This document shows positions 2,967-23,997 of a stretch of 46,182 nucleotides of DNA, piece by piece. A program made the position numbers and the translations under genes. Each line of letters begins with the position of its first letter. Positions within the stretch are counted from its first letter, which is position 1. The DNA lies in the sequence record SRR31156797_11237. One strand, written 5' to 3'. The notes beneath the pieces are model-generated. The model saw nothing but the letters and a program-made list of their open reading frames with translations, was not told where the DNA came from and made no database searches.

Positions 2967-4527
2967 CCGAATAGGGTTCAAGTTGATGGCCGCAATCGTG
3001 ATTGTTGCCATCATTTTTATCCCTATTACTAGCTTAGTCAGTTACCAATACACCTATATCGAAGAGCAGCAAGCGGCACAAGAGCGGGTGAGTCGTATTG
3101 TTGATATGGTCAGAGATAATGCCGCAATGGCGGCTTACCTAAGCGACAACTCATTGGCCTCGGATGTGGTGTCAAGTCTGTCCCGAAACCCTGAGATAAA
3201 AGCGGTTCGCTTTAGTATTGCAAGCGATGCCTTGTTTATATCGGGTAGTGTTCCTGATAGCGAGGGAAACATTGTTGAGAATTTGTCTCCCTCATTCAGC
3301 GACACTAAAGTCGGTAAGTTGGAACTATTTTTAGATTACTCATACATCAACAATTATGCGCAAGATAAGGCCGTTTCACTGGTTGTTTGGCAATCATTTT
3401 TGCTGTTGCTCATTCTTGTGTGCGTGTACATTATTTTTCGTCAGTTGGTTTCTAAGCCTCTTAATCATCTATTAGAGCAGATAAATAGTACGCCAGTTGA
3501 TGGCCTTCAATCAGAAAAAAACATTCATGTTTCTTCCAATGATGAGATCGGTTTTCTTGCGGAAAATACCAACAACTTAATGAACCGCATATCGAACTTT
3601 TATCGTAGTGAAGCGGAGAAAAACCAACAAATTGTTGAGTTGGAGAAGCAGTTTCGGATCATTTTTGAGTACTCGCATGCGGGTATTGCTTTGATCGGAG
3701 AAGATAATCGAATTTATATTGCTAATCAGTCATTTAAAGATACAACTCAATGTGGTGACAGTGAGCAAGACCCTATCTATTTGCCTCAGATCTTTGATAA
3801 CTCGAATGAGTTTGAATCTTTACTTCAAACGGTGCGTGAAAAAGGCAAGAGTCTGTTTAAAGATTTCCGTCTTAACAATGATCCAGACATCTGGCTACGA
3901 GTTCTGTTTTCTCACGTTGCGTATGAACAAAGCCGTGATACGGAGAAGTTTGTTGAGTTAGTGGTTTATGATATTTCAGATAGAGCTCATAAAGAGAAAG
4001 CGTTTGTCTATAACGCTAACCACGATTCGTTGACGGGGATATTCAACCGCCGAGGAGCTGAGACAAGGTTCAAAGAGCAGTGTAATTTGGCTCAGCAGCA
4101 AGGCTCTCACTTCGCGATGTTTTGGCTTGATCTCAATGATTTTAAAATTGTGAATGATGAATATGGTCACGAAGCCGGGGACATTGTGCTTAAGGAACTG
4201 AGTTCTCGTTTACGCAGTGTGTCTCGTCCTGATGATATTGTTGCGCGATGGGGAGGCGATGAGTTTGTTGTCGCGATTTGCTTGAATGATCTTGCAGTGT
4301 TACCCAGCATCTTAAAAGATATGCAAAATGCTTTTATCACTCCGATAGAAATCAGCGATAACCTTTCTGTTACTGTTGGGGCAAGTATCGGAGTCAGTAC
4401 TTCTTTGAACTTAGGGTACGATGTTGAAAAACTCCTGATCCGGGCTGATCAAATGATGTATCAAGTGAAACGCCAGGGAAAATCTGGCGTTAAGCTGGAT
4501 GGTTTATCATTCGAAAACTTGCCTTAA
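2923..4527 (+). CDS. Sensor diguanylate cyclase (TM-periplasmic-TM-HAMP-PAS-GGDEF)
   Basis: Two TM helices, HAMP (KPLNHL...NDEIGFLA), PAS-like (FRIIFEYSHAGIALI), HDSLTGIFNRR, RPDDIVARWGGDEF; GGAG upstream of ATG 2923. Confidence 0.92.
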   Translation: MTTLKRFSLSQWASSRIGFKLMAAIVIVAIIFIPITSLVSYQYTYIEEQQAAQERVSRIVDMVRDNAAMAAYLSDNSLASDVVSSLSRNPEIKAVRFSIASDALFISGSVPDSEGNIVENLSPSFSDTKVGKLELFLDYSYINNYAQDKAVSLVVWQSFLLLLILVCVYIIFRQLVSKPLNHLLEQINSTPVDGLQSEKNIHVSSNDEIGFLAENTNNLMNRISNFYRSEAEKNQQIVELEKQFRIIFEYSHAGIALIGEDNRIYIANQSFKDTTQCGDSEQDPIYLPQIFDNSNEFESLLQTVREKGKSLFKDFRLNNDPDIWLRVLFSHVAYEQSRDTEKFVELVVYDISDRAHKEKAFVYNANHDSLTGIFNRRGAETRFKEQCNLAQQQGSHFAMFWLDLNDFKIVNDEYGHEAGDIVLKELSSRLRSVSRPDDIVARWGGDEFVVAICLNDLAVLPSILKDMQNAFITPIEISDNLSVTVGASIGVSTSLNLGYDVEKLLIRADQMMYQVKRQGKSGVKLDGLSFENLP

Positions 4528-4655: not shown

Positions 4656-5486
4656 ATGAGCAACGATCAGTTACTGCAAGAGTTACAAGAGAACGCCTGT
4701 TTAGATTTAGTAAAACTGTACCAAGCGGATACTCACCGTCATTTTTATGATTTAGTGGGAACGCTATATCAGTTAAAGAAACAGCAAGGTCTCGATACTC
4801 GAATATCTCGTTTTAAAACCGAAGTCGAAAACCTAACTCAAGGTTTAGATGCTTCAAATGTTACTCCACAGCAGTTTGAGCAGTTAGTTGAGACGTTAGA
4901 CTTAAATCAGAGAACCCAAAAAGTGGCGCGTTATATTCAAACTCAAGACAATCATCTCACGTTTGCCAAACCGGTAGACTTAGTGATGTTTGGCGACTCC
5001 ATTACCGAGTGGGGACCATGGCACGATGCATTGACGATACCACTAGCAAACCGAGGGTTAGGTGGTGATACGACCGATGGCATGCTTCGACGCATTGATG
5101 TGACCACCGTTTGCCAGCCAAAACTGGTCTGTATTATGGCGGGCATTAACGACCTTGCTCAAGGGTACAGCGTTGATGAAATCACTGCGAACTATGAACA
5201 AATGTTGAGCCATTGGCAGCAAGGTGGCATTGACGTGTGGGTGCAATCTACCTTGTACGTTGGCCAGCGTTTGTGCCAATTGAACCCTTTAGTGACACAA
5301 TTGAATGAGAATTTGCAATCACTGTGCGCTGAGAAAAATCTTCGTTTCATCGATGTGAACGCTATTTTATGCCCTGAAAAAGTATTGCCGTTAACTTGCA
5401 GCGCAGATGATCTTCACTTGAATGCTTTTGCTTACGGGAAGTGGATATCTCATTTGAACGATTTACTTGAAGAACATTTTCGGTAA
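4656..5486 (+). CDS. SGNH/GDSL hydrolase with an N-terminal extension
   Basis: Blocks FGDSIT, NRGLGGDTT, MAGIND and DDLHLN. Confidence 0.88.
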   Translation: MSNDQLLQELQENACLDLVKLYQADTHRHFYDLVGTLYQLKKQQGLDTRISRFKTEVENLTQGLDASNVTPQQFEQLVETLDLNQRTQKVARYIQTQDNHLTFAKPVDLVMFGDSITEWGPWHDALTIPLANRGLGGDTTDGMLRRIDVTTVCQPKLVCIMAGINDLAQGYSVDEITANYEQMLSHWQQGGIDVWVQSTLYVGQRLCQLNPLVTQLNENLQSLCAEKNLRFIDVNAILCPEKVLPLTCSADDLHLNAFAYGKWISHLNDLLEEHFR

Positions 5487-5676
5487 GCGCCAATATGAGG
5501 CTGTGTTGCACTAAGTTGGTGAAATTGAATAATTAAAATTTACGGTGAGAGCCTGTCTACATAGTTTTTTATGAACTAGCCTGATGGCAAGATTATTGCT
5601 TTGTTGTTAATAAAATATTAAAAATCCCAATCAAGGGGTTGCAATAAAGTTAATCTTGCTCGTTAAGGAATTTGAC

Positions 5677-6618
5677 ATGTCAACTAAGTTTACCCTGAAG
5701 CAACTTAGATATTTTGTCGTTGCAGGGGAACACGGAAGTGTTACCAAAGCCGCCTCGCTAATGTTTGTGTCACAACCATCAATTTCTGCAGCCATTCAGC
5801 ATCTGGAGCATGTTACAGGGCTTCAGTTATTCGTGCGCCACCATGCTCAAGGGCTGTCATTGACGCCACAAGGTTATCAGTTTTATTACAAAGCCAAATC
5901 CTTGTTGAATGATGCTGATAATTTGTCTCGTTTTGCAGAAACTTTGGGTACCGAGATCTCTGGAGTACTTAATGTTGTTGGCTTCCCGACTTTTACATCG
6001 TTAATGATGCCAATGATGCTGAAACAGTTTGTCGAAAAGTATCCCGCCGTTGATGTACTGTGTGATGAACTCCATCAGAAGGATATTATTTCAGGTATTA
6101 ACAATTGTAAGTACGAACTGGCAATTACTTATGATATGCAGCTTCCGGACAATATTGAATTTATTCCTCTGATGACGATGCCTCCTTATGTGGCCGTGTG
6201 TGCGGATCATCCATTGGCGAAGCACTCAATTTTATCGATAGAAGAGCTGGTGGACTATCCAATGGTGATGCTCGACTGGCCGATGAGTAAACAGTACTTC
6301 AGCTCATTGTTTTATAGCTATGGAGTAGAACCTAAAATCGCCTTTAATGCTCATTCTTTGGGTATGGCACAAGGGTTAGTCGAAAATGGGCTTGGTTATA
6401 CATTGCTTAACACTCCAATGCGTGATGACGGAGTAAACAGTAAGTTGGTTTCCATTCCGTTAAAAGGTAATTTGCTTCCGTTGACTATGGGTGTCGCTAA
6501 GCTCAAACAAACACGATTATCACCGGTCGGAAATGCATTTTTGAACGTGTTGAAGAGTATCAATACGCAACCACAAAAACATGCACCTTATTCTTTAGTG
6601 ACATCACTCGCATCATAA
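5677..6618 (+). CDS. LysR-family regulator (HinK-like)
   Basis: FTLKQLRYF...SVTKAA...VSQPSIS HTH; RHHAQGLSLTP; AAGGA RBS before ATG 5677; adjacent to hinFLH-like genes. Confidence 0.9.
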   Translation: MSTKFTLKQLRYFVVAGEHGSVTKAASLMFVSQPSISAAIQHLEHVTGLQLFVRHHAQGLSLTPQGYQFYYKAKSLLNDADNLSRFAETLGTEISGVLNVVGFPTFTSLMMPMMLKQFVEKYPAVDVLCDELHQKDIISGINNCKYELAITYDMQLPDNIEFIPLMTMPPYVAVCADHPLAKHSILSIEELVDYPMVMLDWPMSKQYFSSLFYSYGVEPKIAFNAHSLGMAQGLVENGLGYTLLNTPMRDDGVNSKLVSIPLKGNLLPLTMGVAKLKQTRLSPVGNAFLNVLKSINTQPQKHAPYSLVTSLAS

Positions 6619-6666
6619 ACCGTAATAGGTTCTTGTTGGTGTGTCAGTAAAAAGCACGCGATTGTT

Positions 6667-6706
6667 TAAACCACAAAGCCAGAGCACAAGCACTGGCTTT
6701 GGTTTA
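6667..6706. terminator. Hairpin between convergent genes, likely bidirectional terminator
   Basis: TAAACC-AC-AAAGCCAG...CTGGCTTT-GGTTTA inverted repeat. Confidence 0.65.
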
Positions 6707-6724
6707 TCTCACAAATACACTGAA

Positions 6725-7399
6725 TTATTCGTCTCCGGGAACACCATAACTGGCTGCAGTACTTGGGTTGTCAGCTCGCAACATATAATCTCTCATTTGC
6801 GGTTTATATACAGCCCAGGCTTCGCGAAGTTTCTGTAGTGGATCATCGTCCCAGTCAACACGTAAATCGACTTCTGGCCATGAATGTTCAATGCATACCA
6901 TTAACCCTGCTGATTTCAGTTCACCCAGTTCGCCACCTTGGTCGATACCTGCGGCTAGTGCTTCAATAAGCCGTTCAGCAAGTGCCATATCAGAGTTAGC
7001 TTCAAACGATTCTGTCATCGCCTGAGGAACGGCAACGTTATCCAGTAAGTTACCCATAGCGATACAGTTGAAACCGTGGCTGGTATTGAATATGCCAAGT
7101 GATTGCTGACCACTGAAGGCTGCTCCATTACCCATAGTATCAAGCACGCCAAGTTGTCGGTACTCAATATGTGGGTCAGCCAACTTAAGTTGCTCCAGTG
7201 CTTGGGTTGCTGTTGCCCCTTCACTGAGAAGTGCAAGTCCCAATGATCCTAGAGCCGGATTGGTAATGTTTTGTGTCAGTGTCACTCCGGTTTTAGCTTG
7301 AACAAAAGCGCAGCGACTTGCGACACTAATACTCGAAGAGGAGATGACACAGCCAAAGGTTTTGGTTTTCGAGCAATAGCCTGCAATCGATATTGTCAT
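6725..7399 (-). CDS. DUF1028 Ntn-hydrolase-like protein (HinH-like)
   Basis: Start MTISIAG with Thr2 and AAGGAGG RBS; SSSISVASRC, TQN, YRQL, GNLL, SAGL, VDLRVD motifs. Confidence 0.85.
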   Translation of the reverse strand: MTISIAGYCSKTKTFGCVISSSSISVASRCAFVQAKTGVTLTQNITNPALGSLGLALLSEGATATQALEQLKLADPHIEYRQLGVLDTMGNGAAFSGQQSLGIFNTSHGFNCIAMGNLLDNVAVPQAMTESFEANSDMALAERLIEALAAGIDQGGELGELKSAGLMVCIEHSWPEVDLRVDWDDDPLQKLREAWAVYKPQMRDYMLRADNPSTAASYGVPGDE

Positions 7400-7416
7400 A
7401 ATGACCTCCTTAAATA

Positions 7417-7827
7417 CTATTCCGGAATAACCGCAATAATGTCTATCTCCATCAACCACTCAGGTTGTGCAAGGCCCGCAACAACTACCCCTGTAGAGAT
7501 TGGGAACACACCTTTTAGCCACTTGCCAACCTCTCGGTATACCGGTTCACGAAAACGAGGGTCGGTAATATAGGTTGTCGTTTTAACGATATGGCTGAGG
7601 TCGGAACCACACTCTTCTAATAATTGCTTTACGTTTTGCATTGCTTGTTTTGCCTGGGCTTCAGGATCGCCTAAACCAACCAGCTTTCCTTCGAAGTCCG
7701 TACCGACCTGGCCACGAACATAGACGGTGTTACCAGCAACCACAGCCTGACATAAGTCATTATCAAGAGATTGATTCGGGTAAGTCTCTTTAGTGTTAAA
7801 CATACGAATACGATTATGTGTTGGCAT
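7417..7827 (-). CDS. RidA-family (YjgF/YER057c/UK114) protein (HinL-like)
   Basis: VYVRGQVG, QAKQAMQNVKQLLEE, VFPISTGVVVAGLAQPEWLMEID. Confidence 0.9.
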   Translation of the reverse strand: MPTHNRIRMFNTKETYPNQSLDNDLCQAVVAGNTVYVRGQVGTDFEGKLVGLGDPEAQAKQAMQNVKQLLEECGSDLSHIVKTTTYITDPRFREPVYREVGKWLKGVFPISTGVVVAGLAQPEWLMEIDIIAVIPE

Positions 7828-7920
7828 GCGTTAAATCCTTTTGAAGATAGTTAATTATTATGCCCAGACAACTTGTTATTAAATAAGTTGTCTGGTTTTA
7901 GAATGACGTTGTTGAATGAA

Positions 7921-9171
7921 TTACAGGGCGTAACCTTCGTAGTTACGTTGTGTGTCGATGTGACCGGCGATGTATTTAGCATCGTGCCATACACCCCAGA
8001 TGAAGGTTGAGCCACGGCGAGATAACCAAGGAAGGCCTAAGAAATAGATACCTCGAACAGGAGCAATACCGCGTTGATGTACAGGGTAGCCACGGTCATC
8101 AAGTACGTCACACTTCAGCCAGCTGTAATCGACGTTAAAGCCCGTTGCCCAAATGATACTTGTGATGCCATTACCTTTGAGGTCAAGCGTCAAAATAGGA
8201 TTTACCATGCACTCTGGTTGGTCGAATACTTTTCTCGCCTCTGGTTCTTGAGGGAAGTCTAACCCGTTACGTTCGATGTAAGCATCCGCTTCATCAAGCA
8301 CGGCAAGGTAGTTTTTGTCACCTTGCTCGACATTGGTGTTGAGATCAGATGCAAAGCTAAGAATGCCATTGCTGCATGACTCAGTACGTCCTAACAGCGT
8401 AATACCTTCGTGAGCCAGCTCTTTGAAATCTATTGTCTTCCCGCCGTCAGTACCACTGACAGCAATCGTGACATGTTCCATTCCTGGTTTCATTGCTGCT
8501 TCATCCCATTTACCAAGAACGCCTAGCCACCATACAAAGTCTTTGCCTCGATAGCTGCGTGGTGGACGATCATGAGGGCCAACAGAAAGGTAGACTTCTT
8601 TACCTGACTGGTTGAGTTCTTTCGCGATTTGTACGCCAGACGAACCTGCGCCAACAACCAGAACCGCACCGTCAGGTAGCTGTTGAGGGTTCATATATTC
8701 AGAAGAGTGCAATTGTTGAACTTCTTCTTCAGCAACAATCGCTGGAACCGATGGAAGCTGAAATGCTCCCGTAGCCGAAACAACACGCTGTGCTTGGATG
8801 GTTCCTTCTGAAGTCTCTACAATAAAGCCCGGAGCACCATGCTTTGGCGTTACCTGCGTGACTTCAACGCCGGTATGAACAGGAGCGTTGAATTTGTCCG
8901 CGTATTTTTCGAAATAGTCGGCGATAGCGTCTTTGTTGACGAAACTATCTTTATCAAACCCTGTGAATTCAAGACCTGGGAAACGGTCGTGCCAGGCTGG
9001 ACCATTTGCTACCAACGAATCCCAACGCTGCGTTCTCCAGCGCTCGGCAATACGGTCACGCTCAAGCACAAGGTGTGAAATATCAAGTGAGGTTAAATGC
9101 TCACTCATCGCAATGCCGGCTTGACCTGCACCAATGACAACGGTGTCAACTTTTGTATTTTCAAACTTCAC
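7921..9171 (-). CDS. Flavin-containing monooxygenase (HinF-like, putative imidazoleacetate monooxygenase)
   Basis: FAD motif VIGAGQAG, RWDSL, QLHSSEY FMO fingerprint, NADPH motif VVGAGSSG, IIWATGF; GTG start. Confidence 0.88.
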   Translation of the reverse strand: MKFENTKVDTVVIGAGQAGIAMSEHLTSLDISHLVLERDRIAERWRTQRWDSLVANGPAWHDRFPGLEFTGFDKDSFVNKDAIADYFEKYADKFNAPVHTGVEVTQVTPKHGAPGFIVETSEGTIQAQRVVSATGAFQLPSVPAIVAEEEVQQLHSSEYMNPQQLPDGAVLVVGAGSSGVQIAKELNQSGKEVYLSVGPHDRPPRSYRGKDFVWWLGVLGKWDEAAMKPGMEHVTIAVSGTDGGKTIDFKELAHEGITLLGRTESCSNGILSFASDLNTNVEQGDKNYLAVLDEADAYIERNGLDFPQEPEARKVFDQPECMVNPILTLDLKGNGITSIIWATGFNVDYSWLKCDVLDDRGYPVHQRGIAPVRGIYFLGLPWLSRRGSTFIWGVWHDAKYIAGHIDTQRNYEGYAL

Positions 9172-9263
9172 TATTTAATCCCTTTTATTATTCGTTTTAT
9201 CCGATGGGAGAAATAGTAGGTCAGCCTTTTTTATCGATAAAATACTATTAATTAAACCTCTGC

Positions 9264-9278
9264 ATAAGAAAATATTAT
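9264..9278. promoter_or_regulatory. Candidate LysR box in the divergent monooxygenase/aldehyde dehydrogenase promoter region
   Basis: ATAA-N7-TTAT dyad satisfying T-N11-A; the region is AT-rich, so a chance match is possible. Confidence 0.4.
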
Positions 9279-9392
9279 CCAATAAACCATCTTATTAAGT
9301 TTAACTGATAATTCATTTACGCTATTAATAACAGTCGGAGAAAGAAAGCTAATGATATTTCTATTTAAAGGATTAAAAATAAGGAGAATATC

Positions 9393-10880
9393 TTGGAGAA
9401 ATATACCAAAAGCTATTGGACAGATAAGATTTCAAGCATCGAACTGAGAAACAAAGCATTTATTGATGGACAATTTGTTGAAGCGTCTGATGGGGGCTCT
9501 TATGAGGTGCTTAACCCAGCGACAGGTAGAAAGCTGGCTGATGTTACCGCATGTACTTCAGCGGATGTCGATAGTGCGGTCAGCGCGGCAAAAGCAAGTT
9601 TTGAGCAAGGCGTATGGGCGAAGAAAGCGCCAGCTGAACGTAAACAAGTGATTAAAAAGCTTGCGCAGCTTATCGTCGAAAATCAGGAAGAGTTGGCGTT
9701 ATTAGAAACATTAAACGTCGGTAAGCCAGTGATGGACTCGTTTAATCTGGATATTCCGGGAGCCGCGGGTTGTTTTGAATGGTATGCCGAAGCTGTGGAT
9801 AAAATTTACGGCGAAGTGGCACCGACTGATGGCAATAATGTCGCGATGATCACGCGTGAACCTATTGGGGTTGTCGCTGCCATCATCCCATGGAATTTCC
9901 CTCTTGATATTGCCGCATGGAAACTCGCACCTGCACTGATTTCGGGGAATTCAGTTGTACTGAAACCAGCGGAACAATCTCCGCATACTGCACTTCGTCT
10001 GGCTGAGTTAGCGATGGAAGCCGGATTACCAAAAGGCGTATTAAGTGTCGTTACGGGGACAGGTGAAGTTGTAGGGCAAGCGCTGGGACGCCACAACGAT
10101 GTCGATTGCTTAACCTTTACCGGTTCAACGGCGACAGCAAAACGTCTAATGAGCTACTCTGCTGAATCGAACATGAAACCAGTGTGGCCAGAAACTGGAG
10201 GAAAGAGTCCTAACCTGATTTTTGCTGATTGCAATTTAGATGCAGCAGTAGAGCATGCGGCTGCCGGTATCTTTTTTAATCAGGGTGAAGTTTGCTCCGC
10301 TAACTCTCGAATTCTTGTTGAACGCAGTATTCAGCAACAATTTACTCAGAAGCTGATTGAACATACAAAACAAATGAAGTTGGGCGACCCTCTGGATCCG
10401 GACACACAAATTGGTGCTCTGATTAGCAAAGAACATGCGAGTAAAGTACGTAAGATGGTGGCTGATGCAGAAGAAGCGGGGGCAACATCAGCGTGTGGGT
10501 ATGAGCCAGCTGATCAGCAAAGTAATTTTGTTGAGCCAACCATTTTAACCAACGTCACGCCTTCGATGGCAATAGCTCAAGAAGAAGTGTTTGGCCCTGT
10601 TGTTGTGGTTATTCCATTTGATAGTAAAGAGCAGGCAATTGAAATGGCGAATAGCTCGATATATGGATTAGCCGCATCGGTCTGGACGCAGGATATTACT
10701 CGTGCGCACTCTGTTGCAAAGTCACTGCGAGCTGGCACCGTTTCAATCAATACCATGGATGCTCTCGACTACAGCACACCATTTGGGGGCTTTAAACAAT
10801 CAGGTTTTGGCCGAGATTTGTCACTGCACGCGTTTGATAAATTTACGCAACTAAAAACTACGTGGATTAAGTTGAGTTAA
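9393..10880 (+). CDS. NAD-dependent aldehyde dehydrogenase (PuuC/HinD-like)
   Basis: IIPWNFP, LKPAEQSP, FTGST, ETGGKSP (catalytic Glu), FFNQGEVC (catalytic Cys), EEVFGP, PFGGFKQSG; TTG start with AAGGAG RBS. Confidence 0.95.
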   Translation: MEKYTKSYWTDKISSIELRNKAFIDGQFVEASDGGSYEVLNPATGRKLADVTACTSADVDSAVSAAKASFEQGVWAKKAPAERKQVIKKLAQLIVENQEELALLETLNVGKPVMDSFNLDIPGAAGCFEWYAEAVDKIYGEVAPTDGNNVAMITREPIGVVAAIIPWNFPLDIAAWKLAPALISGNSVVLKPAEQSPHTALRLAELAMEAGLPKGVLSVVTGTGEVVGQALGRHNDVDCLTFTGSTATAKRLMSYSAESNMKPVWPETGGKSPNLIFADCNLDAAVEHAAAGIFFNQGEVCSANSRILVERSIQQQFTQKLIEHTKQMKLGDPLDPDTQIGALISKEHASKVRKMVADAEEAGATSACGYEPADQQSNFVEPTILTNVTPSMAIAQEEVFGPVVVVIPFDSKEQAIEMANSSIYGLAASVWTQDITRAHSVAKSLRAGTVSINTMDALDYSTPFGGFKQSGFGRDLSLHAFDKFTQLKTTWIKLS

Positions 10881-10895
10881 CGTGAGTTGAAATAA

Positions 10896-10927
10896 AAATA
10901 AGGGAAGAAAATATGCTTCCCTTATTT
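10896..10927. terminator. Bidirectional terminator
   Basis: AAATAAGGGAAG-N8-CTTCCCTTATTT between convergent genes. Confidence 0.75.
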
Positions 10928-10938
10928 ATGTGAACTAA

Positions 10939-12105
10939 TTAAAACTCTTCTTTTGATAATGAAGTAGCCAAGGCGGAAATAAACGATTCCGCTTTTTCTA
11001 ATTGTCCAAATGAAATAAATTCATTCGGTTTGTGACCTTGCTCCATATTACCGGGGCCACATACTAATGTTGGTATTTTTAATCGTTCAGAAAATAATCC
11101 ACCTTCAGTGCCAAAATTAATTTTGCTCATTTCATAGTCTTGAGCCAGATTTTGCACATAGGTAATGAGTTCGGTATTTTCAGAAGAGTCTAACCCTGGG
11201 TATTCAGTAAGAATATCGATGTGGATGTCACAATCTGAACTGACCTCGTGCATTTCCATAACTAGCTGTTCTGAGTATGTCTTTAACTCATTCAAAATGT
11301 GTTTCGGGTCATCGCTCGCAATGTTACGCATTTCGAAATCAAACTCGCAGTGATCAGGAACGATGTTCAGAGCCTGCCCACCCCGAATGGTACCGGTATG
11401 AATGGTGGTATATGGAATCTCATATTCGTCATTATACGGGCCGAAGTTACGTTTCGACAGCGCCATGTTCTCTAACCAATTCACCAGACGAGCCGCGTAG
11501 TTAACCGCATTCACACCGTAAGGGGCCATGCCTGAGTGACATGATTTACCCGTTACGGTAATTTTCGCTGCCAGCTTACCTTTGTGCAGACTGGCGACTT
11601 TCATCGAAGTGGGCTCACCAACAATACAGGCCGCAGGTTTTATGGTTAAGTGCTGCAGATGCTCAATGAGATCTCTTACCCCAAGGCAGCCAATTTCTTC
11701 ATCGTAAGAAAACGCAAAATGCACTGGTGTTTTCAAAGGTGTAGCTAAAAACTCAGGAATTGCCGCTAGAATCACAGCAATGAATGACTTCATGTCTGTC
11801 GTTCCGCGTCCATAGCAACGCTCATCTTTAATCACTAGCTCGAATGGGTTGGTATCCCAAGGCTGTCCTGTTACCGGAACGGTATCTGTATGGCCTGAAA
11901 GCATAACCCCCGCTTTGCCTTCGGGGCCGATAGAAGCGAATAAGTTTGCTTTGGTTTTCTCTTTATTGAACACTAATTTCGAAGTGATGCCGTGCTCAGT
12001 CAGATAGGTTTGAATAAAGTCGATCAGCGGCATATTGGAATGCGCGCTGGTCGTGTCATAGCTGATTAGCGTGGATAAAATATCCAGTGTTTTTTGATTT
12101 GGCAT
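10939..12105 (-). CDS. argE: M20 ArgE-like amidohydrolase (acetylornithine deacetylase family; HinG-like in this context)
   Basis: SGHTDTVP, GRGTTDMK, YDEEIG, IVGEPT, FGTEGG, GHKPNE metal-binding motifs. Confidence 0.88.
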   Translation of the reverse strand: MPNQKTLDILSTLISYDTTSAHSNMPLIDFIQTYLTEHGITSKLVFNKEKTKANLFASIGPEGKAGVMLSGHTDTVPVTGQPWDTNPFELVIKDERCYGRGTTDMKSFIAVILAAIPEFLATPLKTPVHFAFSYDEEIGCLGVRDLIEHLQHLTIKPAACIVGEPTSMKVASLHKGKLAAKITVTGKSCHSGMAPYGVNAVNYAARLVNWLENMALSKRNFGPYNDEYEIPYTTIHTGTIRGGQALNIVPDHCEFDFEMRNIASDDPKHILNELKTYSEQLVMEMHEVSSDCDIHIDILTEYPGLDSSENTELITYVQNLAQDYEMSKINFGTEGGLFSERLKIPTLVCGPGNMEQGHKPNEFISFGQLEKAESFISALATSLSKEEF

Positions 12106-12132
12106 TGTGCAAACCTGTTTGTGTTATTTTTG

Positions 12133-13749
12133 TTATTCTGTGTAATCCCGCTGTATAAAATCTGCGGCGCGTTCGCCAATCATGATACAAACAGCGTTAG
12201 TGTTACCACTGACCAGTTCCGGCATTACCGAAGCATCCGCAATGCGAAGCCCTTTCATACCATGAACTTTTAAGTCCGAAGAAACAACCGAAAGATCGTC
12301 AGTGCCTATCTTACATGTGCCTACAGGGTGGAAAACGGTAGCGCCATACTCACGGACGTAGTCCATTAACTGTTCGTCAGTCTGGCATTCTTCTCCTGGC
12401 AACATTTCTTTACCTCTAAACGGCGTAAATTCGTTGTCAGCAAGAATTTTACGAGCGTAGCGGATACCATCAATCAGCACTTTCGCGTCTTGTTCGTCTT
12501 CTAAAAAGTTATAGTCAATCTCAAGTTCTTTCGATGGGCTCAATGTTAATTGACCGATACTTTTGGGTTTCAGTACACAGGTATGAATAGCATAGCCGTG
12601 TCCCCATTCAAACAGACGACCTCTATGACTGCGATAGCCAGGTACAAAATGAAACTGGATATCGGGTTTATCACTATTGGTGGTTGAAGCAAAACCGCCA
12701 GCTTCAACATAGTTGGTTGTTAACCAACCTTTACGTTTAAGTAAGTAGCTAAAGGGCGCTTTGACGATACTCGGCAACGCACCCAAAGAAAAACCCAAGC
12801 TCTCTTTGGAAGATGATCTGACCGTAACGAGTCCGTCTAAATGATCCTGAAGATTTTGCCCCACGCCTGACAACTCATGTTTTACCTCAATGTTGGCTTT
12901 TTCCAGTTGTTGTTTCGGGCCAATACCTGATTTCATCAAAATATGAGGAGTTCCTAACGCACCTGCGGACAGAATAACTTCTTTGTTGGCGATGAGAGTC
13001 TTGATTTGCCCCTGATGAGTAATGGTCAAGCCAGTTATGTGCTTGTCATTAATCGTCAGATGTTCTACGTGTGCATTGGTAATGACAGTTAGGTTATTAC
13101 GTTTATCAAGGACTGAATCAACAAATGCTTTGTAGCTGGAAAGACGTTTGGCTTCTTTTTGAGTGACATCATAAATACCCACACCGAGCTGACTCTCACC
13201 GTTAAAGTCTTGGTTGCTCTTTAGTCCTAAAGCTTGATTGGCCGCTTTGACAAAACGGTAAGAAAACGGGTTAGGACTTTGCGGCTTATCAACCAGCAAT
13301 TCGCCCTCTGTTCCATGATATTTTTTGCTGTGTCCCAATAAGTTCTTTTCCGATTTTTTGAAGTATGGGAGAACTTCATTCCAGCTCCAGCCTTCTGCTC
13401 CAAGCTCTTGCCAGCGATCATAGTCATCCTGATTACCACGAATGTAGATCATACTGTTCATCGAAGAAGAGCCACCAACGGCTTTACCTCTGGGGCAGTG
13501 AAGCGAACGGTTATTCATGTTCTTTTGCGGAGTGGAGTAGTAGTTCCAGCTGTATTTTTCACTCTTGTAAAGTGTAATTGTCCCAGCTGGAACCTGAATT
13601 CTCGGAGAGTTATCCTTATCGCCAGCCTCGATAAGACAGACGGAAACTGCAGGATCTTCGGATAAGCGGCTTGCTATAACACTGCCGGCAGATCCTGCAC
13701 CAATGACGATGAAATCGAAACTGTCGGAAATCGATACCATATCTGACAT
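12133..13749 (-). CDS. GMC-family oxidoreductase (choline/alcohol dehydrogenase-like)
   Basis: DFIVIGAGSAG, GGSSSMNSMIYIRG, VGQNLQDH, FHPVGTCKIG, SGNTNA. Confidence 0.93.
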   Translation of the reverse strand: MSDMVSISDSFDFIVIGAGSAGSVIASRLSEDPAVSVCLIEAGDKDNSPRIQVPAGTITLYKSEKYSWNYYSTPQKNMNNRSLHCPRGKAVGGSSSMNSMIYIRGNQDDYDRWQELGAEGWSWNEVLPYFKKSEKNLLGHSKKYHGTEGELLVDKPQSPNPFSYRFVKAANQALGLKSNQDFNGESQLGVGIYDVTQKEAKRLSSYKAFVDSVLDKRNNLTVITNAHVEHLTINDKHITGLTITHQGQIKTLIANKEVILSAGALGTPHILMKSGIGPKQQLEKANIEVKHELSGVGQNLQDHLDGLVTVRSSSKESLGFSLGALPSIVKAPFSYLLKRKGWLTTNYVEAGGFASTTNSDKPDIQFHFVPGYRSHRGRLFEWGHGYAIHTCVLKPKSIGQLTLSPSKELEIDYNFLEDEQDAKVLIDGIRYARKILADNEFTPFRGKEMLPGEECQTDEQLMDYVREYGATVFHPVGTCKIGTDDLSVVSSDLKVHGMKGLRIADASVMPELVSGNTNAVCIMIGERAADFIQRDYTE

Positions 13750-13866
13750 AACTTTGAACCTTATAGCGAACGCTAGTGAAATACCGAAACGGCAAGTATT
13801 TCATTAGGTTGTTGACGATGGGGCAGCAACGACGCATGCGAGATGCGCCGCTACCAAACTTGGAGG

Positions 13867-14739
13867 CTAGTGGATTTCCTGCATATCATCATGCAGCAGA
13901 GATAGAATTTCCTTTTTAATTGACAGGAATTCCGGTTCCATTGCCAAGTCCAGTGATCTTGGGTGAGGGATGTCCACATCCAGTATTTTTTGAATTCTTC
14001 CGGGTTTTGAACCCATAACGAAAACGCGATCACCGAGCATGATGGCCTCATCAATATCATGCGTCACGAATACCACGGTTTTTTTACTTTTTTCCCAAAC
14101 CTGAAGTAACAACTGCTGCATTTGCAGGCGAGTCTGACTGTCTAGCGCACCGAAAGGTTCATCCATCAATAAAATCTTTGGATCGTTTGCCAGAGAGCGG
14201 GCTATCGCAACTCGTTGCTTCATACCGCCCGAAAGCTGTTTGGGAAAATGGTTTGCGAAGTTTTCAAGCCCAACTTGCTTGATGTAGTCTTCAACAATTT
14301 TCTTACGCTCTTTTGCTGGTATTTTTTTCTGCTTAAGACCGAACTCAATGTTTTGAGAAACCGTTAGCCAAGGGAATAGGGTATAGCTTTGGAAAACCAT
14401 GCCACGTTCAGCGCTTGGCCCATTTACCGTTTCGCCAGCAACACGGATTTCGCCTTCTGTCGGGTTGTTTAGACCGGCAGTTAGGTAAAGCAGACTAGAT
14501 TTACCACAACCAGATGGTCCGACGATTACCACAAACTCTTGGTCTTTCACTTCGAGAGACAGGTTCTCGATTGCTGTAAATTCGCCACCATTCTTGGTCG
14601 GGAATTTAAGCGTAATATTGTCTATATGCAGCTGAGTTTTTTTATCAGAGACAGGTTTCAGTCCATGATATTTATCAGTTACTGAAGTTTCTTCAATTGG
14701 TTCTTGAACTGATTTTGAATTTGTCGCTACTTGTCCCAT
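13867..14739 (-). CDS. NitT/TauT-family ABC transporter ATP-binding protein
   Basis: GPSGCGKS, VFQSYTLFPW, LSGGMKQR, LLMDEPFGALD, VTHD. Confidence 0.95.
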   Translation of the reverse strand: MGQVATNSKSVQEPIEETSVTDKYHGLKPVSDKKTQLHIDNITLKFPTKNGGEFTAIENLSLEVKDQEFVVIVGPSGCGKSSLLYLTAGLNNPTEGEIRVAGETVNGPSAERGMVFQSYTLFPWLTVSQNIEFGLKQKKIPAKERKKIVEDYIKQVGLENFANHFPKQLSGGMKQRVAIARSLANDPKILLMDEPFGALDSQTRLQMQQLLLQVWEKSKKTVVFVTHDIDEAIMLGDRVFVMGSKPGRIQKILDVDIPHPRSLDLAMEPEFLSIKKEILSLLHDDMQEIH

Positions 14740-15530
14740 GCGCTTAACCTCAATCGTAAAACTTTAAAGAACTGGTCAGTAATCAGGCCAAGTAAGCCGA
14801 TAATAACGATAGCTAGGAAGATAATATCAACCTGGAAGCCACGCATTGCTTTTAAGCTAATGTAGCCAAGACCGCTGTTCGCAGCGACGAGTTCAGCAAC
14901 CACTAAGTAAGTCCATGCCCAACCGATGGTGACGCGCAGTGCATCCAGTACACCAGGAACGGAAGCAGGCATGATGATTTGAGTTAGAACCTTTTTACGG
15001 CTTGTTCCTAGCGTGTAAGCTGCATGCAGAAGGTCTTTGGACACACCCCGTGAAACATCCGCAATCATGACCACCTGTTGAAAGAACACGCCAAAGATAA
15101 TGACAGTGACACGCTGCTCAATACCGATACCTATCCATAGAATGAACAGTGGTACGAATGAAGTCACCGGCAAGTAGCGAATAAAGTTCACTAACGGGTC
15201 TAAGAATGCTTGCACAATTCGGAAGCTGCCCATTAGAAGACCTAATGGAATGGCAACCAGAGAGGAAAGCCAGAAGCCGATGATAACAACTTCGAGACTC
15301 GCCCAAATGTGGGTTAGTAGGGTGCCATCTTCCGCTAAACGCATGCCTGTATTCAGGACCTCGAGCGGTGATGGAAGAAACATACTTGGCACCCAGCCAG
15401 TATAAGAGAGTATTACCCAACCAGTGAGCAGGACTAACCAACTGATTAGTCCGGCACTGATAACGAATTTGTTGGGAATATCCTCTTTAGGTGCAGTCAA
15501 TTGATGCAAAGAGAATGATTGATTAGCCAC
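14727..15530 (-). CDS. NitT/TauT-family ABC transporter permease
   Basis: FLPSP, multiple TM helices, AAYTLG (EAA-like loop), AWTYLVVAEL...GLG. Confidence 0.93.
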   Translation of the reverse strand: MANQSFSLHQLTAPKEDIPNKFVISAGLISWLVLLTGWVILSYTGWVPSMFLPSPLEVLNTGMRLAEDGTLLTHIWASLEVVIIGFWLSSLVAIPLGLLMGSFRIVQAFLDPLVNFIRYLPVTSFVPLFILWIGIGIEQRVTVIIFGVFFQQVVMIADVSRGVSKDLLHAAYTLGTSRKKVLTQIIMPASVPGVLDALRVTIGWAWTYLVVAELVAANSGLGYISLKAMRGFQVDIIFLAIVIIGLLGLITDQFFKVLRLRLSAWDK

Positions 15531-15543
15531 AACAAATCCTTAC

Positions 15544-16542
15544 TTATTGTTTCACAAAACGGTTGTCTACCAGTTCTTCGAAAGTAACGCTGTACTCTTC
15601 TTTTTTCAGCTCGCTCCATGTTTCATTGGCAAGCTTAATAACCGGAGAAATTTCACCTTCTTTACCCAGTTCACCCAGTAACTTCGTTGCCATTTTCTGA
15701 TCGTAGAAACGAACAGTTGATGCAGCTTCCGCTAAGTCTTTTGGATCTGAAAGGTAACCGCCCAGCTCTTTAGCCATGATTTCGTACGCTTTTTCCGGGC
15801 TATCTTTAGTAAATTGAACGGCACGGTATAAACCATCAACCAGTGCTGCAACATCTTCAGGCTGCTGTTCGATTACGTCACAACGAAGATTAACCACGTC
15901 AACAATGACGCCAGGCGTTTTACTGCTGTCGACCAATACTTTGCCAGCGTTATGAGAACGAGCGTAAGACAGGTTTGGTTCCCATGTTACCGCTGCAGGA
16001 ACACGGCCAGAGATAAATGCACTCGCGGCATCGTCTGCTGTCATATTTTGCACGGTAATATCAGACATGCTCATCCCGGCATCTTTCAGCAGGTTTGAAA
16101 GCCAGAACTGAGAAACAGAACCTTCGTTTACTGCCACTGTTTTACCTTTCAGGTCTTGCATAGAATTGATGCCGTCCTGAACTAAGATGCCGTCACCACC
16201 GTAGCTGTCATCTAGTACAGCCACCGCTTTGAAACAGAATTTCGGGCGGTATTTAAGGATTTCATCAATCGTTGACGCTGAACCGTCAAGGTGGCCTGAC
16301 GCTGTAGCAGCCATGTACATTGATGCTTCTTCAATAGTTTGAAGATCAACTTCCAGTCCTTTTTCTTTGAAGTATCCCAGCTCTTTAGCCAGATAAAGCG
16401 TACCGTAGCCAACCCAAGTCGTCATACCGATAGAGAGTTCACCAGCGTTAGCAAGCTGTGTTGTTAACGCAAGTACTGAAAGCGTTTTTGCTGCTGTCTT
16501 CGTGTGCTTTTTAAATTTACTTTCCTGTTTACGCATATCCAA
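15544..16542 (-). CDS. NitT/TauT (SsuA/NMT1-like) ABC transporter substrate-binding protein
   Basis: Signal peptide; WVGYGTLYLAKELGYF, DDSYGGDGI, DLKGKTVA, AAVTWEP. Confidence 0.9.
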   Translation of the reverse strand: MDMRKQESKFKKHTKTAAKTLSVLALTTQLANAGELSIGMTTWVGYGTLYLAKELGYFKEKGLEVDLQTIEEASMYMAATASGHLDGSASTIDEILKYRPKFCFKAVAVLDDSYGGDGILVQDGINSMQDLKGKTVAVNEGSVSQFWLSNLLKDAGMSMSDITVQNMTADDAASAFISGRVPAAVTWEPNLSYARSHNAGKVLVDSSKTPGVIVDVVNLRCDVIEQQPEDVAALVDGLYRAVQFTKDSPEKAYEIMAKELGGYLSDPKDLAEAASTVRFYDQKMATKLLGELGKEGEISPVIKLANETWSELKKEEYSVTFEELVDNRFVKQ

Positions 16543-16729
16543 TGTCCTTTTGAATTAGAGGGCTTTAATTGAGCAATACCAGTTAAGCATGTGTGAAATA
16601 TGTGAACAATTATTAAAAACTTTGCTTTTGAATAGGTTTTTTTAATCCACTCTGAAATGGCTTTAGTTTTTGGTATGAATTGGTGAGTAAGTGCGGCAAT
16701 GATGGGCTGATTTATATACAAACGGGATC

Positions 16730-16758
16730 AAAAAACGCCAGAAGTATTCTTCTGGCGT
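16730..16758 (-). terminator. Intrinsic terminator of the aap-iaaA operon
   Basis: ACGCCAGAAG-TATT-CTTCTGGCGT stem with a U tract on the minus strand. Confidence 0.85.
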
Positions 16759-16787
16759 GAATAAGTTAGTCATTAACTTTGGGGGAG

Positions 16788-17717
16788 CTATTCGTAGATC
16801 TTTGATTGAGCAGGTTGGTTAGAGCCTCCCCAGCCGCGGTACATACCTTCCGTGTTAAACGGCAGAGTGATATTCCCTTTGTTATCAACAGCGATAATAC
16901 CGCCACTGCCGCCTGTACTTGGTAAGTCTTTAAACACTACATGATTGGAAGCTTGCTCTAAGCTTTCATTGGCCAGCATCATGCGTGATGAAATGTTATG
17001 AGCGACGACATGACGCAGAAAATGCTCGCCATGACCTGTTGCTGAAACCGCGCAAGTCAGGTTATTCGCGTAAGTTCCTGCTCCAATAACAGGGGAGTCA
17101 CCAATACGACCGTATTGTTTATTGGTAATACCGCCGGTTGATGTCGCAGCTGCTACGTTACCGTGCTTGTCGAACGCAACAGCACCCACTGTGCCATATT
17201 TATAATCGTTATCGGTTGGCTCTAAAATCACTTCCTGAGCTTTCAACGCAGATTGAAGCTGTTGATAACGCATCTCGGTAGAGAAATAGGTATTGTCTAC
17301 TTCAACTAGACCGACATCACGGACGAATTTTTCTGCGCCTTCTCCGCCAAGATAAACATGAGGGGAATGATCCATAACAGCCCGAGCAACATTGATTGGG
17401 TTTGGACTGAAACGTATTCCGGATACCGCACCCGCATCAAGCGATTTGCCACACATGATGGAAGCATCAAGTTCGTGCTTACCTTCGTGGTTAAATACAG
17501 CACCTCTGCCAGCGTTAAACCAGGTACAATCTTCTAAGTGATTAACCGCTACCTGAACCACATCCAGTGCGCTTGAGCCTTCTTTCAGGCTTGCTAATCC
17601 CTCTTCAATGATACCTTTTAAAATGTTGGTAATTTCCATTTCCTGTTCGGGAGTCAGTTTCCCTTTGGACATAGCACCTGCGCCACCGTGAATAGCGATG
17701 GAATATTCGTTTGACAT
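16788..17717 (-). CDS. iaaA: Isoaspartyl peptidase / plant-type L-asparaginase
   Basis: IAIHGGAG, FNAGRG, autoproteolysis site G/TVGAVA, AATSTGG, GRIGDSP, SATGHGE. Confidence 0.93.
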   Translation of the reverse strand: MSNEYSIAIHGGAGAMSKGKLTPEQEMEITNILKGIIEEGLASLKEGSSALDVVQVAVNHLEDCTWFNAGRGAVFNHEGKHELDASIMCGKSLDAGAVSGIRFSPNPINVARAVMDHSPHVYLGGEGAEKFVRDVGLVEVDNTYFSTEMRYQQLQSALKAQEVILEPTDNDYKYGTVGAVAFDKHGNVAAATSTGGITNKQYGRIGDSPVIGAGTYANNLTCAVSATGHGEHFLRHVVAHNISSRMMLANESLEQASNHVVFKDLPSTGGSGGIIAVDNKGNITLPFNTEGMYRGWGGSNQPAQSKIYE

Positions 17718-17725
17718 ATATTTCC

Positions 17726-18460
17726 TTAATGGTGAATCAGCTGATTGAGAAACTCGCGGGTGCGAGGTGATTTCGGTGCTGAGAAAAATTCTTCTGGATT
17801 GTTCTCTTCAACAATTTGCCCTTGATCCATAAAAATGACGCGGTCTGCAACTTTACGGGCGAACCCCATTTCATGAGTGACACAAAGCATAGTCATGCCT
17901 TCGCTTGCAAGATCGGTCATCACATCCAGTACTTCCGAGATCATTTCCGGGTCGAGCGCAGATGTTGGTTCGTCAAAAAGCATCACTTCTGGGTTCATGC
18001 ACAGTGCTCGAGCAATGGCGACACGTTGCTGCTGGCCGCCAGAAAGTTGGCTCGGATACTTATTGGCTTGCTCTTGGATCTTAACTTTTTCAAGTAAACC
18101 TAACGCTTTCTCAATCGCGATATCTTCTTTGGTTCCCAGGTTCGATGTTTGCGGCAATACGCAGTTTTCTAAAACCGTTAGGTGAGGGAAAAGATTGAAC
18201 GATTGGAAACACATGCCAACTTGCTTGCGCAGTTCTATAAGATCTTTTGGTGTATCACTGACTTCTTGTCCAAAGACATTAAGCGAGCCGGACTGGTGTT
18301 TTTCCAGTTGGTTTATACAGCGGATAAGCGTTGATTTACCTGAGCCAGAAGGGCCACAAATAACAATACGTTCACCTTTCTTAACGCTTAAATTGATGTC
18401 GCGCAGAGCATGGTATGAGTCGTACCATTTATTCAAATTTTTAGTATTGATGACTTCCAT
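17726..18460 (-). CDS. aapP: Polar amino-acid ABC transporter ATP-binding protein (AapP/BztD-like)
   Basis: [38 protein letters not shown]. Confidence 0.9.
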
Positions 18461-18484
18461 GTAGTTACTTCTCCTAAATGGTCA

Positions 18485-19573
18485 TTATTTTAAGCGGCGT
18501 TCTAAATGCGCTGCGTATTGGGAGAGTGAAAAACAGCAGACGAAGAAAAAGACTGCTAAAAATGCATACATTTCGTTTTCCAACCCTACCCATTTCGCGT
18601 TTGATAGTGTGCTTGAAGCAATACCTACGATATCAAGTACACCAACGATCATTACCAGTGTGGTCTCTTTCAAAATACCGACGAAATGATTAAGCAGAGA
18701 CGGAATCGAGTTCTTTAAAACTTGTGGAAGAATGATCTGTCCCATCATTTTCCAGTATCCGAACCCCAGTGCTTGAGCTGCCTCAAACTGCCCTTGCGGG
18801 ATCGATTGAAGGCCACCGCGGATAGTTTCAGCCATGTAAGCTGCCGTAAACAGAACCAATACCGCAACAACGCGCAGTAGTACGTCGAACTCCTGACCTG
18901 GTGGCAGGAACAACTGAATCATGAGTGATGCCATGAACAGCAAGGTAATAACAGGAACCGAACGAACCAGCTCAATGTAAGCCACGCTTAACCAATGAAT
19001 GACTGGGCGTTTTGAGCGTCGGCCTAACGCCAGTAATATGCCAAGCGGAAGCGCAAATACCATACCGAATATGGCCAAAAACAGAGTCAGCATGATGCCG
19101 GCGAATTTCGTGGTAGAGATAGACTCTAAACCAAAAGTCCCGCCTTTTAACAACATCCACATTGCGAATGGTAAGACTGCGATATAACCAAGCATCAATA
19201 GCTTATTAAAACGCTTAATGTATAGCATTGGGATTGCGATAGCCGCGAGCCCGAATGCCACATCAACTCGCCACTGTTGTTCATCGGGATACATACCGTA
19301 AGTGAACAACTCGATTCGGTTTACCACCGGCAGCCAGCAAGCTCCGCCAGATACACAGTTCGCCTGAGAGTCACCAACAAAGGTGGCATCAAAAATAAAC
19401 CAGTTGAGTAGAGTCGGAACAAGCCACAGTACAAACAATGAACCTACTATTGTCAGGATGGTGTTGAATATTGAAGAAAACAGATTTTGACGGCACCAAT
19501 TCTTCCATCCTGCTTTGATTTCAATTGCAGGGCGTGGCTCAATATATTCCATGATATTTTCGCTTTGCATCAT
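18485..19573 (-). CDS. aapM: Amino-acid ABC transporter permease (AapM/BztC-like)
   Basis: NLFSS, GACW, YGMYP, AYMAETIRGGLQSIPQGQFEAA. Confidence 0.88.
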   Translation of the reverse strand: MMQSENIMEYIEPRPAIEIKAGWKNWCRQNLFSSIFNTILTIVGSLFVLWLVPTLLNWFIFDATFVGDSQANCVSGGACWLPVVNRIELFTYGMYPDEQQWRVDVAFGLAAIAIPMLYIKRFNKLLMLGYIAVLPFAMWMLLKGGTFGLESISTTKFAGIMLTLFLAIFGMVFALPLGILLALGRRSKRPVIHWLSVAYIELVRSVPVITLLFMASLMIQLFLPPGQEFDVLLRVVAVLVLFTAAYMAETIRGGLQSIPQGQFEAAQALGFGYWKMMGQIILPQVLKNSIPSLLNHFVGILKETTLVMIVGVLDIVGIASSTLSNAKWVGLENEMYAFLAVFFFVCCFSLSQYAAHLERRLK

Positions 19574-20742: not shown

Positions 20743-20786
20743 GGAACATCAGCCCACTCAATTGTGGGCTGATAATTTAAAGAAGA

Positions 20787-23972: not shown

Positions 23973-23997
23973 GATTAACAGAATAAGGAGAATTGGT

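Follow-up and report, generated by a model that had tools for sequence, protein, structure and literature searches.

A hin-type gene island in Vibrio with a GMC flavoprotein as a possible alcohol-fed entry to imidazole-acetate catabolism

The window analysed here is a 46-kb stretch of DNA (46,182 nucleotides, record SRR31156797_11237), in which ten intact open reading frames (ORFs) fill positions 5656-16542. They encode a LysR-type regulator, a DUF1028 protein, a RidA-family protein, a flavin monooxygenase, an aldehyde dehydrogenase (ALDH), an M20 amidohydrolase, a glucose-methanol-choline (GMC) flavoprotein, and the ATPase, permease and binding protein of a NitT/TauT-type ABC transporter (Table 1). 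Pfam and NCBIfam, from which the domains were called, agree with the clustering of regulatory and catabolic genes that a first-pass annotation of this DNA had described. The locus is a variant of the known hin pathway, and its novel part is the GMC gene, not the transporter. Below, G denotes genomes, L loci or stretches, and X other public runs; activities, substrates and regulation are read from homology and gene context.

The DUF1028, RidA and monooxygenase genes form a single run on the minus strand, and the ALDH gene is divergent from the monooxygenase gene. The listed start codon of the DUF1028 gene is a GTG that overlaps the RidA gene; the true start is probably downstream. The binding protein, permease, ATPase, GMC and M20 genes form another one-strand run, in which the gaps are short (117 and 27 bp). 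One terminator-like hairpin lies before its first gene and another after its last, and no hairpin of comparable strength was found inside it, in keeping with the earlier proposal that the M20 gene, then called ArgE-like, closes this run. Using three different hin-associated queries, tblastn gave no class-III aminotransferase match at E <= 1e-3 in the window, and Pfam detected no amine oxidase or APC permease domain in the ten cluster proteins. The absence of these enzymes, as first annotated, is thus borne out over these ranges.

Table 1. Features of the hin-type island and its borders, in window coordinates
Feature	Position	Strand	Evidence or remark
Island with whole cluster	5512-16714		11.2 kb; block missing from some related DNA
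LysR-type regulator, probable cluster regulator	5656-6618	+	Pfam HTH_1 and LysR_substrate
DUF1028 protein, HinH-type amidase (predicted)	6725-7459	-	Pfam PF06267, 195 bits, match from residue 22
RidA-family protein, HinL-type enamine/imine deaminase (predicted)	7417-7827	-	Pfam PF01042 (Ribonuc_L-PSP)
FAD/NAD(P)H flavin monooxygenase, HinF-type	7921-9171	-	Pfam Pyr_redox_3
Divergent promoter region, monooxygenase operon/ALDH	9172-9392		83% mean column identity with two nearest Vibrio relatives
Aldehyde dehydrogenase, HinD-type	9393-10880	+	Pfam Aldedh
Terminator-like hairpin 3' of M20 gene, between convergent ALDH and M20 genes	10896-10927	-	Hairpin search
M20 amidohydrolase, HinG-type	10939-12105	-	Pfam M20 and M20_dimer; NCBIfam PRK07522, 514.7 bits
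GMC flavoprotein, hin-associated clade	12133-13749	-	Pfam GMC_oxred_N/C
ABC transporter ATPase, NitT/TauT type	13867-14739	-	Pfam and NCBIfam
ABC transporter permease, NitT/TauT type	14727-15530	-	Pfam and NCBIfam
NMT1/SsuA-like periplasmic binding protein	15544-16542	-	Pfam and NCBIfam
Strong terminator ending the upstream Asparaginase_2/amino-acid ABC operon, parting it from the cluster	16735-16758	-	Hairpin search

Contigs of four other public runs (X2, X3, X4 and X12) were mapped onto window positions 5400-17000. A contig of X3 joins position 5511 directly to 16715, and in one of X2, position 5513 is linked to 16722 through nine nucleotides of other sequence. In this cluster-less DNA, the Asparaginase_2 terminator comes immediately after a GDSL-lipase gene. 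Because these contigs join its two edges, the whole 11.2-kb block is one presence/absence unit, and the clustering of its genes is not by chance. No flanking repeats of note and no mobility genes were found at the island. Contigs of X2, X4 and X12, 92-98% identical to the window, span the junction between the M20 and GMC genes; the GMC arrangement is therefore real and common to relatives. The X12 contigs derive from an RNA library and cover most of the cluster, but they represent a relative at ~92% identity and were rejected as evidence of transcription.

Relatives of the monooxygenase (63-69% identity over the full length) occur in at least 598 species genomes, from which 80 loci in named genomes were kept. 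With thresholds of >= 50% identity for RidA, >= 40% for DUF1028 and >= 38% for M20, a RidA gene was found around 78 of the 80 monooxygenase genes, DUF1028 around 77 and M20 around 74. All four genes are present in 74/80 loci, and the loci missing a core gene are mostly short contigs. The gene order in Pseudomonas is monooxygenase-RidA-DUF1028-M20, with identities to the window proteins of 63-69%, 81-90%, 41-50% and 45-50%, respectively. The RidA protein is 81-90% identical in most gamma- and betaproteobacterial loci, and two GxGxxG motifs of the monooxygenase are invariant in alignment A1. The Pseudomonas order matches that of hinF-hinL-hinH-hinG, given in PMC8231116 (Table 1) as PA5393-PA5390. 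In Pseudomonas putida strain U, HinF is an FAD monooxygenase (EC 1.14.13.5), HinL an enamine deaminase, HinH an amidase, HinG an amidase of EC 3.5.1.8, and HinD an aldehyde dehydrogenase (PMC6467879, Table 3). DUF1028 is equated with HinH by operon position, and hin orthology as a whole by forward best matches in other Pseudomonas species together with operon position.

The remaining catabolic genes fit the same scheme. In two genomes of the putida group (G002 and G078), the genome-wide best match of the ALDH (58-59%) adjoins hinC and hinFLHG, and the next paralogue reaches 53%; the enzyme is thus HinD-type. The best match of the M20 protein in the same genomes is the M20 protein of the hin operon (47-48%, next ~31%). 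After the hin operon of P. entomophila (L059) come LysR, ALDH, binding-protein, LuxR-type regulator and class-III aminotransferase genes, which is the classical hin arrangement. Automated models label the M20 protein ArgE, since its scores exceed both ArgE cut-offs (PRK07522, 514.7 bits against 412; TIGR01892, 365 bits against 297.7). Gene context and the assignment of HinG to EC 3.5.1.8 (PMC6467879) point to a formylaspartate deformylase rather than ArgE. The ALDH scores below the BetB cut-off (TIGR01804, 515.8 versus 668.6 bits). Among the named control genomes, DUF1028 matches were found only in Thermus, Deinococcus, Haloferax and Sulfolobus. The monooxygenase occurs in 6 of the 401 Vibrionaceae genomes searched, so the hin pathway is rare in this family.

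The first-pass annotation had recognised the monooxygenase, RidA, DUF1028 and ArgE-like proteins as a Hin set and the ALDH as its partner, and the wider comparison supports both assignments. The cluster is very probably a hin-type island for the catabolism of imidazole-acetate. By orthology, the HinD-type ALDH would turn imidazole-4-acetaldehyde into imidazole-4-acetate, which the HinF-type monooxygenase would hydroxylate. RidA (HinL), DUF1028 (HinH) and M20 (HinG) would convert the opened ring to aspartate, formate and ammonia. The intermediates listed in the first-pass annotation do not appear in the texts examined. Compared with the hin pathway of P. putida U and P. aeruginosa PAO1 (hinABCD, hinFLHG and hinK), the window shares the four lower-pathway families, the HinD-type ALDH and an adjacent LysR gene. 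It lacks the HinC aminotransferase and the HinA permease in the cluster, and it contains a GMC gene and the NitT/TauT ABC transporter. M20 has been transferred to the operon of the transporter, and the LysR protein is only about 35% identical to that of Pseudomonas hin loci.

The LysR protein is 83% identical to those of the two nearest relatives (G354 and G396), 64-65% to those of L010 and L014, and 34-37% to those of most Pseudomonas hin loci. The latter are conserved among themselves (75-87%), and the window protein is of the same family and in the same position. HinK is a LysR regulator that senses imidazole-4-acetate. The window protein would probably switch on the three transcription units. 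The two promoter regions have in common only a weak CTATCCAA...TAAGTTT pattern, with differing spacing, which was not counted as evidence.

The GMC protein scores below the cut-offs of two choline dehydrogenase models (TIGR01810, 502.4 versus 732.1 bits; PRK02106, 570.3 versus 605 bits). Orthologues of 57-72% identity are present in 14 of the 80 genomes with hinF. No best match in the remaining genomes exceeds 55%, the value reached in one of them; among the first 40 genomes, for which all matches were listed, the others stay at or below 47%. Eight of the 14 orthologues are located inside a hin cluster (L010, L004/L092, L008/L093, L034, L037/L091, L023, L079/L089 and L076/L090), and two belong to a binding protein-permease-ATPase-GMC unit that stands alone (L083 and L084). 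Two adjoin genes for a HinD-type ALDH and a HinK-like LysR protein (L085 and L086, the latter also with ABC genes), and two adjoin an NCS1 permease gene (L087 and L088).

A metagenome scan centred on the GMC protein used generic GMC motifs and returned mostly paralogues. Only two of its 80 loci were at >= 54% identity (L114 and L115). Both contain the full hin set and an ALDH, and both lack a HinC-type aminotransferase; the order in L114 is DUF1028-monooxygenase-ALDH-RidA-NCS1 permease-GMC-M20. The other 78 loci (<= 47%, paralogues) are without any hin core gene. A random set of 400 genomes of the class yielded two matches at 54-55% and no further orthologue, and was therefore of no use for co-occurrence statistics. 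In a tree inferred by a quick maximum-likelihood method with SH-aLRT support, all 17 hin- or module-linked GMC proteins and three others (L194-L196) form a single clade (support 100), within which the proteins of the window and L010 are sisters (support 99).

An NCS1 permease gene directly adjoins the GMC gene in L092/L093, L087, L088 and L114, and these permeases are 58-100% identical to each other (L093:10587-11987, minus strand; L114:8568-9962, plus strand; L087:7559-8947, plus strand; L088, about 10811-12154). A paralogue, 43-47% identical to the GMC-linked permease, adjoins hinFLHG-LysR in about 30 Pseudomonas and Burkholderia loci. The two NCS1 permeases are probably transporters for related imidazole compounds. 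The GMC gene thus often travels with its own transporter, related to a hin-linked one. The gene is repeatedly linked to hin genes, in varying orders, in Vibrio, Pseudomonas, Paraburkholderia, a Mesorhizobium metagenome-assembled genome and the metagenome contigs L114 and L115. The GMC clade is probably tied to the hin cluster in function. In L087, a Paraburkholderia locus, the NCS1-GMC pair is far from hin genes and is flanked by genes for a histone-deacetylase-family amidohydrolase (6238-7401, minus strand) and an amidase-signature enzyme (10745-12160, plus strand); the GMC substrate there may be an acylated precursor.

The nearest relatives of the cluster, in G354 and G396, share its left flank and gene order. 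Identities are 81-84% for the monooxygenase, 84% for the ALDH, 82-83% for M20 and 89-91% for the binding protein. Their layout is LysR-AraC-aminotransferase / DUF1028-RidA-monooxygenase / ALDH / M20-ATPase-permease-binding protein. The window has no AraC and class-III aminotransferase genes between LysR and DUF1028. Conversely, the two genomes have only about 100 bp where the window holds a 1760-bp GMC segment, forming a clean indel, and no GMC orthologue was found elsewhere in them (best match 44%). In L010, a more distant Vibrio cluster, a GMC gene with 72% identity occupies the same position. Because of this position, and because L010 is the sister of the window in the tree, loss of the GMC gene in the lineage of G354 and G396 appears more parsimonious than its gain in the window. 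The Vibrio cluster would have had a GMC gene ancestrally, and the nearest relatives, now with AraC and an omega-aminotransferase in its stead, would have lost it.

Three groups of aminotransferases, with 31-35% mutual identity and best matched by different NCBIfam models, have been recruited to hin clusters; the upper step has therefore been replaced repeatedly. An uncultured Vibrio (G001) contains two hin clusters, a GMC-type cluster without ALDH on contig C3 (L010) and an aminotransferase-type cluster on contig C2 (L105/L106). The sole HinD-type ALDH gene found in that genome is located in the aminotransferase-type cluster. The hin cluster of G396 is interrupted between its aminotransferase and DUF1028 genes by a LysR gene and a cluster for malonate decarboxylase (MdcA, CitG, MdcD/E, MdcG, an acyltransferase and also an amidase; L101:9272-18226).

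The transporter has a wider distribution than the GMC gene. A genome search found binding-protein orthologues (58-77% identity) in 24 of the 80 hinF-bearing genomes. Nine loci (L197-L205) were inspected out of the 15 transporter-bearing genomes without GMC, and no GMC remnant was found in them. Five have the arrangement LysR / ALDH-HinC-type aminotransferase-binding protein-permease-ATPase (L199, L200, L201, L203 and L205, in the Pseudomonas genomes G030, G045, G020, G073 and G009, respectively). Two have ALDH-binding protein-permease-ATPase (L197 and L198), and two the transporter alone (L202 and L204), in one case with a LysR gene. The binding protein of the window is 68-73% identical to those of GMC-less Pseudomonas (tblastn) and 62-72% to those of GMC-bearing loci. 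In G354 and G396, the ATPase is 85-86% and the permease 95% identical.

The NitT/TauT transporter is thus a common and apparently undescribed importer of the hin upper pathway, found with the aminotransferase, with GMC, with both and with neither. No mention of such an importer in a histamine upper pathway was found in the literature examined. The first-pass annotation had regarded the ABC transporter as a mark of rewiring and of a new substrate. That view is not supported, given the orthologues in GMC-less ALDH-aminotransferase-ABC operons of Pseudomonas and the closely similar binding protein of the aminotransferase-type Vibrio loci. The binding protein scores below the cut-offs for TauA- and SsuA-type proteins (TIGR01729, 51.6 versus 304.25 bits; TIGR01728, 144.8 versus 163.5 bits). 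Its matches in the Protein Data Bank (PDB) are only distant (E about 1e-7) and comprise sulfonate- and taurine-binding proteins and one labelled as a nitrate transport protein. The transporter would probably carry imidazole-ethyl compounds; its ligand may be histamine, a wider imidazole-ethyl set, or imidazole-4-acetate. In G396, the binding-protein gene is in tandem duplicate (L102:5446-6441 and 6757-7752), with copies 89% and 81% identical to that of the window, possibly reflecting a split of ligand specificity.

The nearest solved relatives of the GMC protein in the PDB are choline dehydrogenase, chloramphenicol-alcohol oxidase and alcohol oxidases, along with a fatty-acid photodecarboxylase. 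GMC enzymes oxidise X-CH2-OH groups, and histaminol is a fusel alcohol of histidine. A histaminol-type substrate is proposed because the GMC protein is the only enzyme of the cluster able to make the aldehyde and because GMC enzymes act on such groups. The protein would oxidise histaminol, 4-(2-hydroxyethyl)imidazole, which the first-pass annotation had already suggested, or a closely related imidazole alcohol to imidazole-4-acetaldehyde and supply it to the HinD-type ALDH, the only role that would fit all cluster types. An imidazole alcohol such as histaminol is a plausible but tentative substrate, at slightly below an even chance. The favoured reading as a whole, a hin island with a GMC-fed entry for an imidazole alcohol, we put at about an even chance.

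Several observations weigh against this reading. Five Pseudomonas loci carry the GMC gene together with a HinC-type aminotransferase gene, in L089 and L091 in the order ALDH-aminotransferase-ABC-GMC. GMC could therefore be accessory rather than the entry enzyme. L197 and L198 have neither an aminotransferase nor a GMC gene, so an aminotransferase missing in cis is no proof of its replacement by another enzyme. The absence in our case covers the 46-kb window, and an aminotransferase may act in trans. The same transporter serves aminotransferase-using relatives (binding protein 89-91%) and adjoins HinC in GMC-less Pseudomonas; the imported compound may therefore simply be histamine. Within the GMC clade, the proteins of L194-L196 (52-55% identity) are paired with an unrelated ALDH and no hin genes. 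No operator shared by the two promoter regions was found by a 16-mer search with three mismatches or by alignment with relatives. A literature search yielded no paper on bacterial histaminol catabolism; it also yielded none linking a GMC enzyme to hin genes.

The earlier proposal that GMC replaces the aminotransferase is supported for this Vibrio lineage, where GMC stands in the aminotransferase's place in the window relative to G354 and G396. In the five Pseudomonas loci with both genes, GMC is an addition. Generally, GMC is an added entry and not a replacement. Likewise, the description of the cluster as "rewired" applies to the GMC gene and not to the NitT/TauT transporter.

One rival reading is an ordinary histamine pathway. 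The ABC transporter would import histamine, an aminotransferase elsewhere in the genome would make the aldehyde, and GMC would only salvage internal histaminol arising from unspecific reduction of imidazole-4-acetaldehyde. The presence of the same transporter in ALDH-aminotransferase-ABC operons, in L089 and L091 with GMC at the end of the HinC-containing operon, is consistent with this explanation. In three genomes (G064, G066 and G055), a third locus encodes a HinC orthologue (82-86%), and L197 and L198 show that both enzymes can be lacking in cis. However, GMC travels with the NCS1 permease (L087, L088, L114, L092 and L093) or as a bare ABC-GMC unit (L083/L084), which argues for an imported substrate. 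Furthermore, L114, L115, L086 and the window combine ALDH and GMC with no HinC-type aminotransferase in the examined stretch, and neither G036 nor G076 has a HinC orthologue above 50%. We consider this reading rather unlikely.

Alternatively, the transporter might import imidazole-4-acetate itself, the GMC substrate entering otherwise, so that transporter and GMC would be neighbours and not a functional pair. A ligand common to all clusters is the only one that directly explains a transporter occurring with the aminotransferase, GMC, both or neither. Small anions or zwitterions are the typical ligands of NitT/TauT binding proteins. The distant PDB matches mentioned above are sulfonate-, taurine- and nitrate-related proteins. 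In Pseudomonas, however, the transporter is located in the upper-pathway operon with hinD and hinC, and a different permease (NCS1 type 2) adjoins hinFLHG. L083 and L084 also keep transporter and GMC as an isolated unit. We consider this explanation unlikely.

A third possibility is that GMC oxidises histamine itself to imidazole-4-acetaldehyde. It would be a flavin-dependent histamine dehydrogenase and a true replacement of the aminotransferase, with the same imported substrate. The exact exchange between the aminotransferase of G354 and G396 and the GMC of the window, next to a nearly identical transporter, agrees with this idea, as does the failure of binding-protein similarity to separate loci with GMC (62-72%) from those without (68-73%). 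On the other hand, the close solved relatives all act on alcohols, bar the photodecarboxylase, and such an enzyme would be superfluous where Pseudomonas operons encode HinC as well. We know of no amine-oxidising GMC enzyme, and this possibility is very unlikely.

Lastly, it is highly improbable that GMC, perhaps with the ABC transporter, belongs to an unrelated choline-like or alcohol pathway and is here by chance: automated models do place it nearest choline dehydrogenase (570 bits) and the L194-L196 subclade is not hin-linked, but its scores miss the cut-offs of the two choline dehydrogenase models (605 and 732 bits), its hin linkage recurs across taxa with different gene orders, and it shares one operon with the HinG-type gene.

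A histaminol-oxidising GMC protein would have parallels in known systems. In the choline to glycine betaine pathway, the GMC enzyme BetA and the ALDH BetB follow the same logic, X-CH2-CH2-OH to aldehyde to acid. Unlike these, the GMC and ALDH proteins of the window score below the equivalog cut-offs, and their partners are imidazole ring-opening genes. Isethionate is oxidised to sulfoacetaldehyde by IseJ, a GMC enzyme, by the same logic. A parallel may be drawn with sulfoacetaldehyde, which is reached from taurine via an aminotransferase and from isethionate via GMC. The Pseudomonas variant with the order LysR / hinD-hinC-binding protein-permease-ATPase(-GMC) (L089, L091, L199-L201, L203 and L205) has the same transporter (68-73%) and the same type of ALDH as the window. 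A subset shares the GMC clade (62-66%). The variant keeps the HinC-type aminotransferase, whereas the window does not. This hinD-hinC-ABC(-GMC) operon is apparently undescribed.

To our knowledge, the only described bacterial routes to imidazole-4-acetate start with an aminotransferase, an amine oxidase or a histamine dehydrogenase. A GMC clade tied to hin clusters across several bacterial orders suggests an unrecognised substrate, probably histaminol, or an unrecognised reaction. A histaminol dehydrogenase would be an enzyme without a described gene and would provide a second, alcohol-fed entry to the breakdown of imidazole-acetate, distributed among Vibrio, Pseudomonas, Paraburkholderia and Ideonella and reaching at least one genome of the alphaproteobacterial genus Mesorhizobium. 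If GMC oxidised histamine instead, it would be the first member of its family acting on a primary amine. In current annotation, the labels 'choline dehydrogenase', 'acetylornithine deacetylase' and 'taurine/sulfonate ABC transporter' hide such genes. Seafood spoilage and host-microbe signalling are two areas in which histamine and the products of its degradation are important. The close Vibrio relatives, one aminotransferase-type and one GMC-type, constitute a natural comparison pair.

The island is flanked by genes of other functions. Beyond the strong terminator, window positions 16788-21866 (minus strand) encode an isoaspartyl peptidase/asparaginase (Asparaginase_2) and a four-gene amino-acid ABC transporter, with a divergent LysR gene at 21979-22881 (plus strand). 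This operon was considered as part of the pathway and rejected; it has no homologue in any of the 80 loci, is behind the terminator, and is outside the island. It is followed by a eukaryotic-type carbonic anhydrase gene (23029-23745) and a rhamnose utilisation cluster (23947-32341) with an FGGY kinase, L-rhamnose isomerase, a sugar ABC transporter and a class II aldolase. On the left side, 153-1010 (minus strand) and 1249-4527 (plus strand) contain two genes for GGDEF diguanylate cyclases, along with two ORFs of 422 and 149 amino acids that have no Pfam match. Both of these ORFs lie with the second GGDEF gene in the segment 1249-4527, to which the left flank of the G354 cluster is syntenic.

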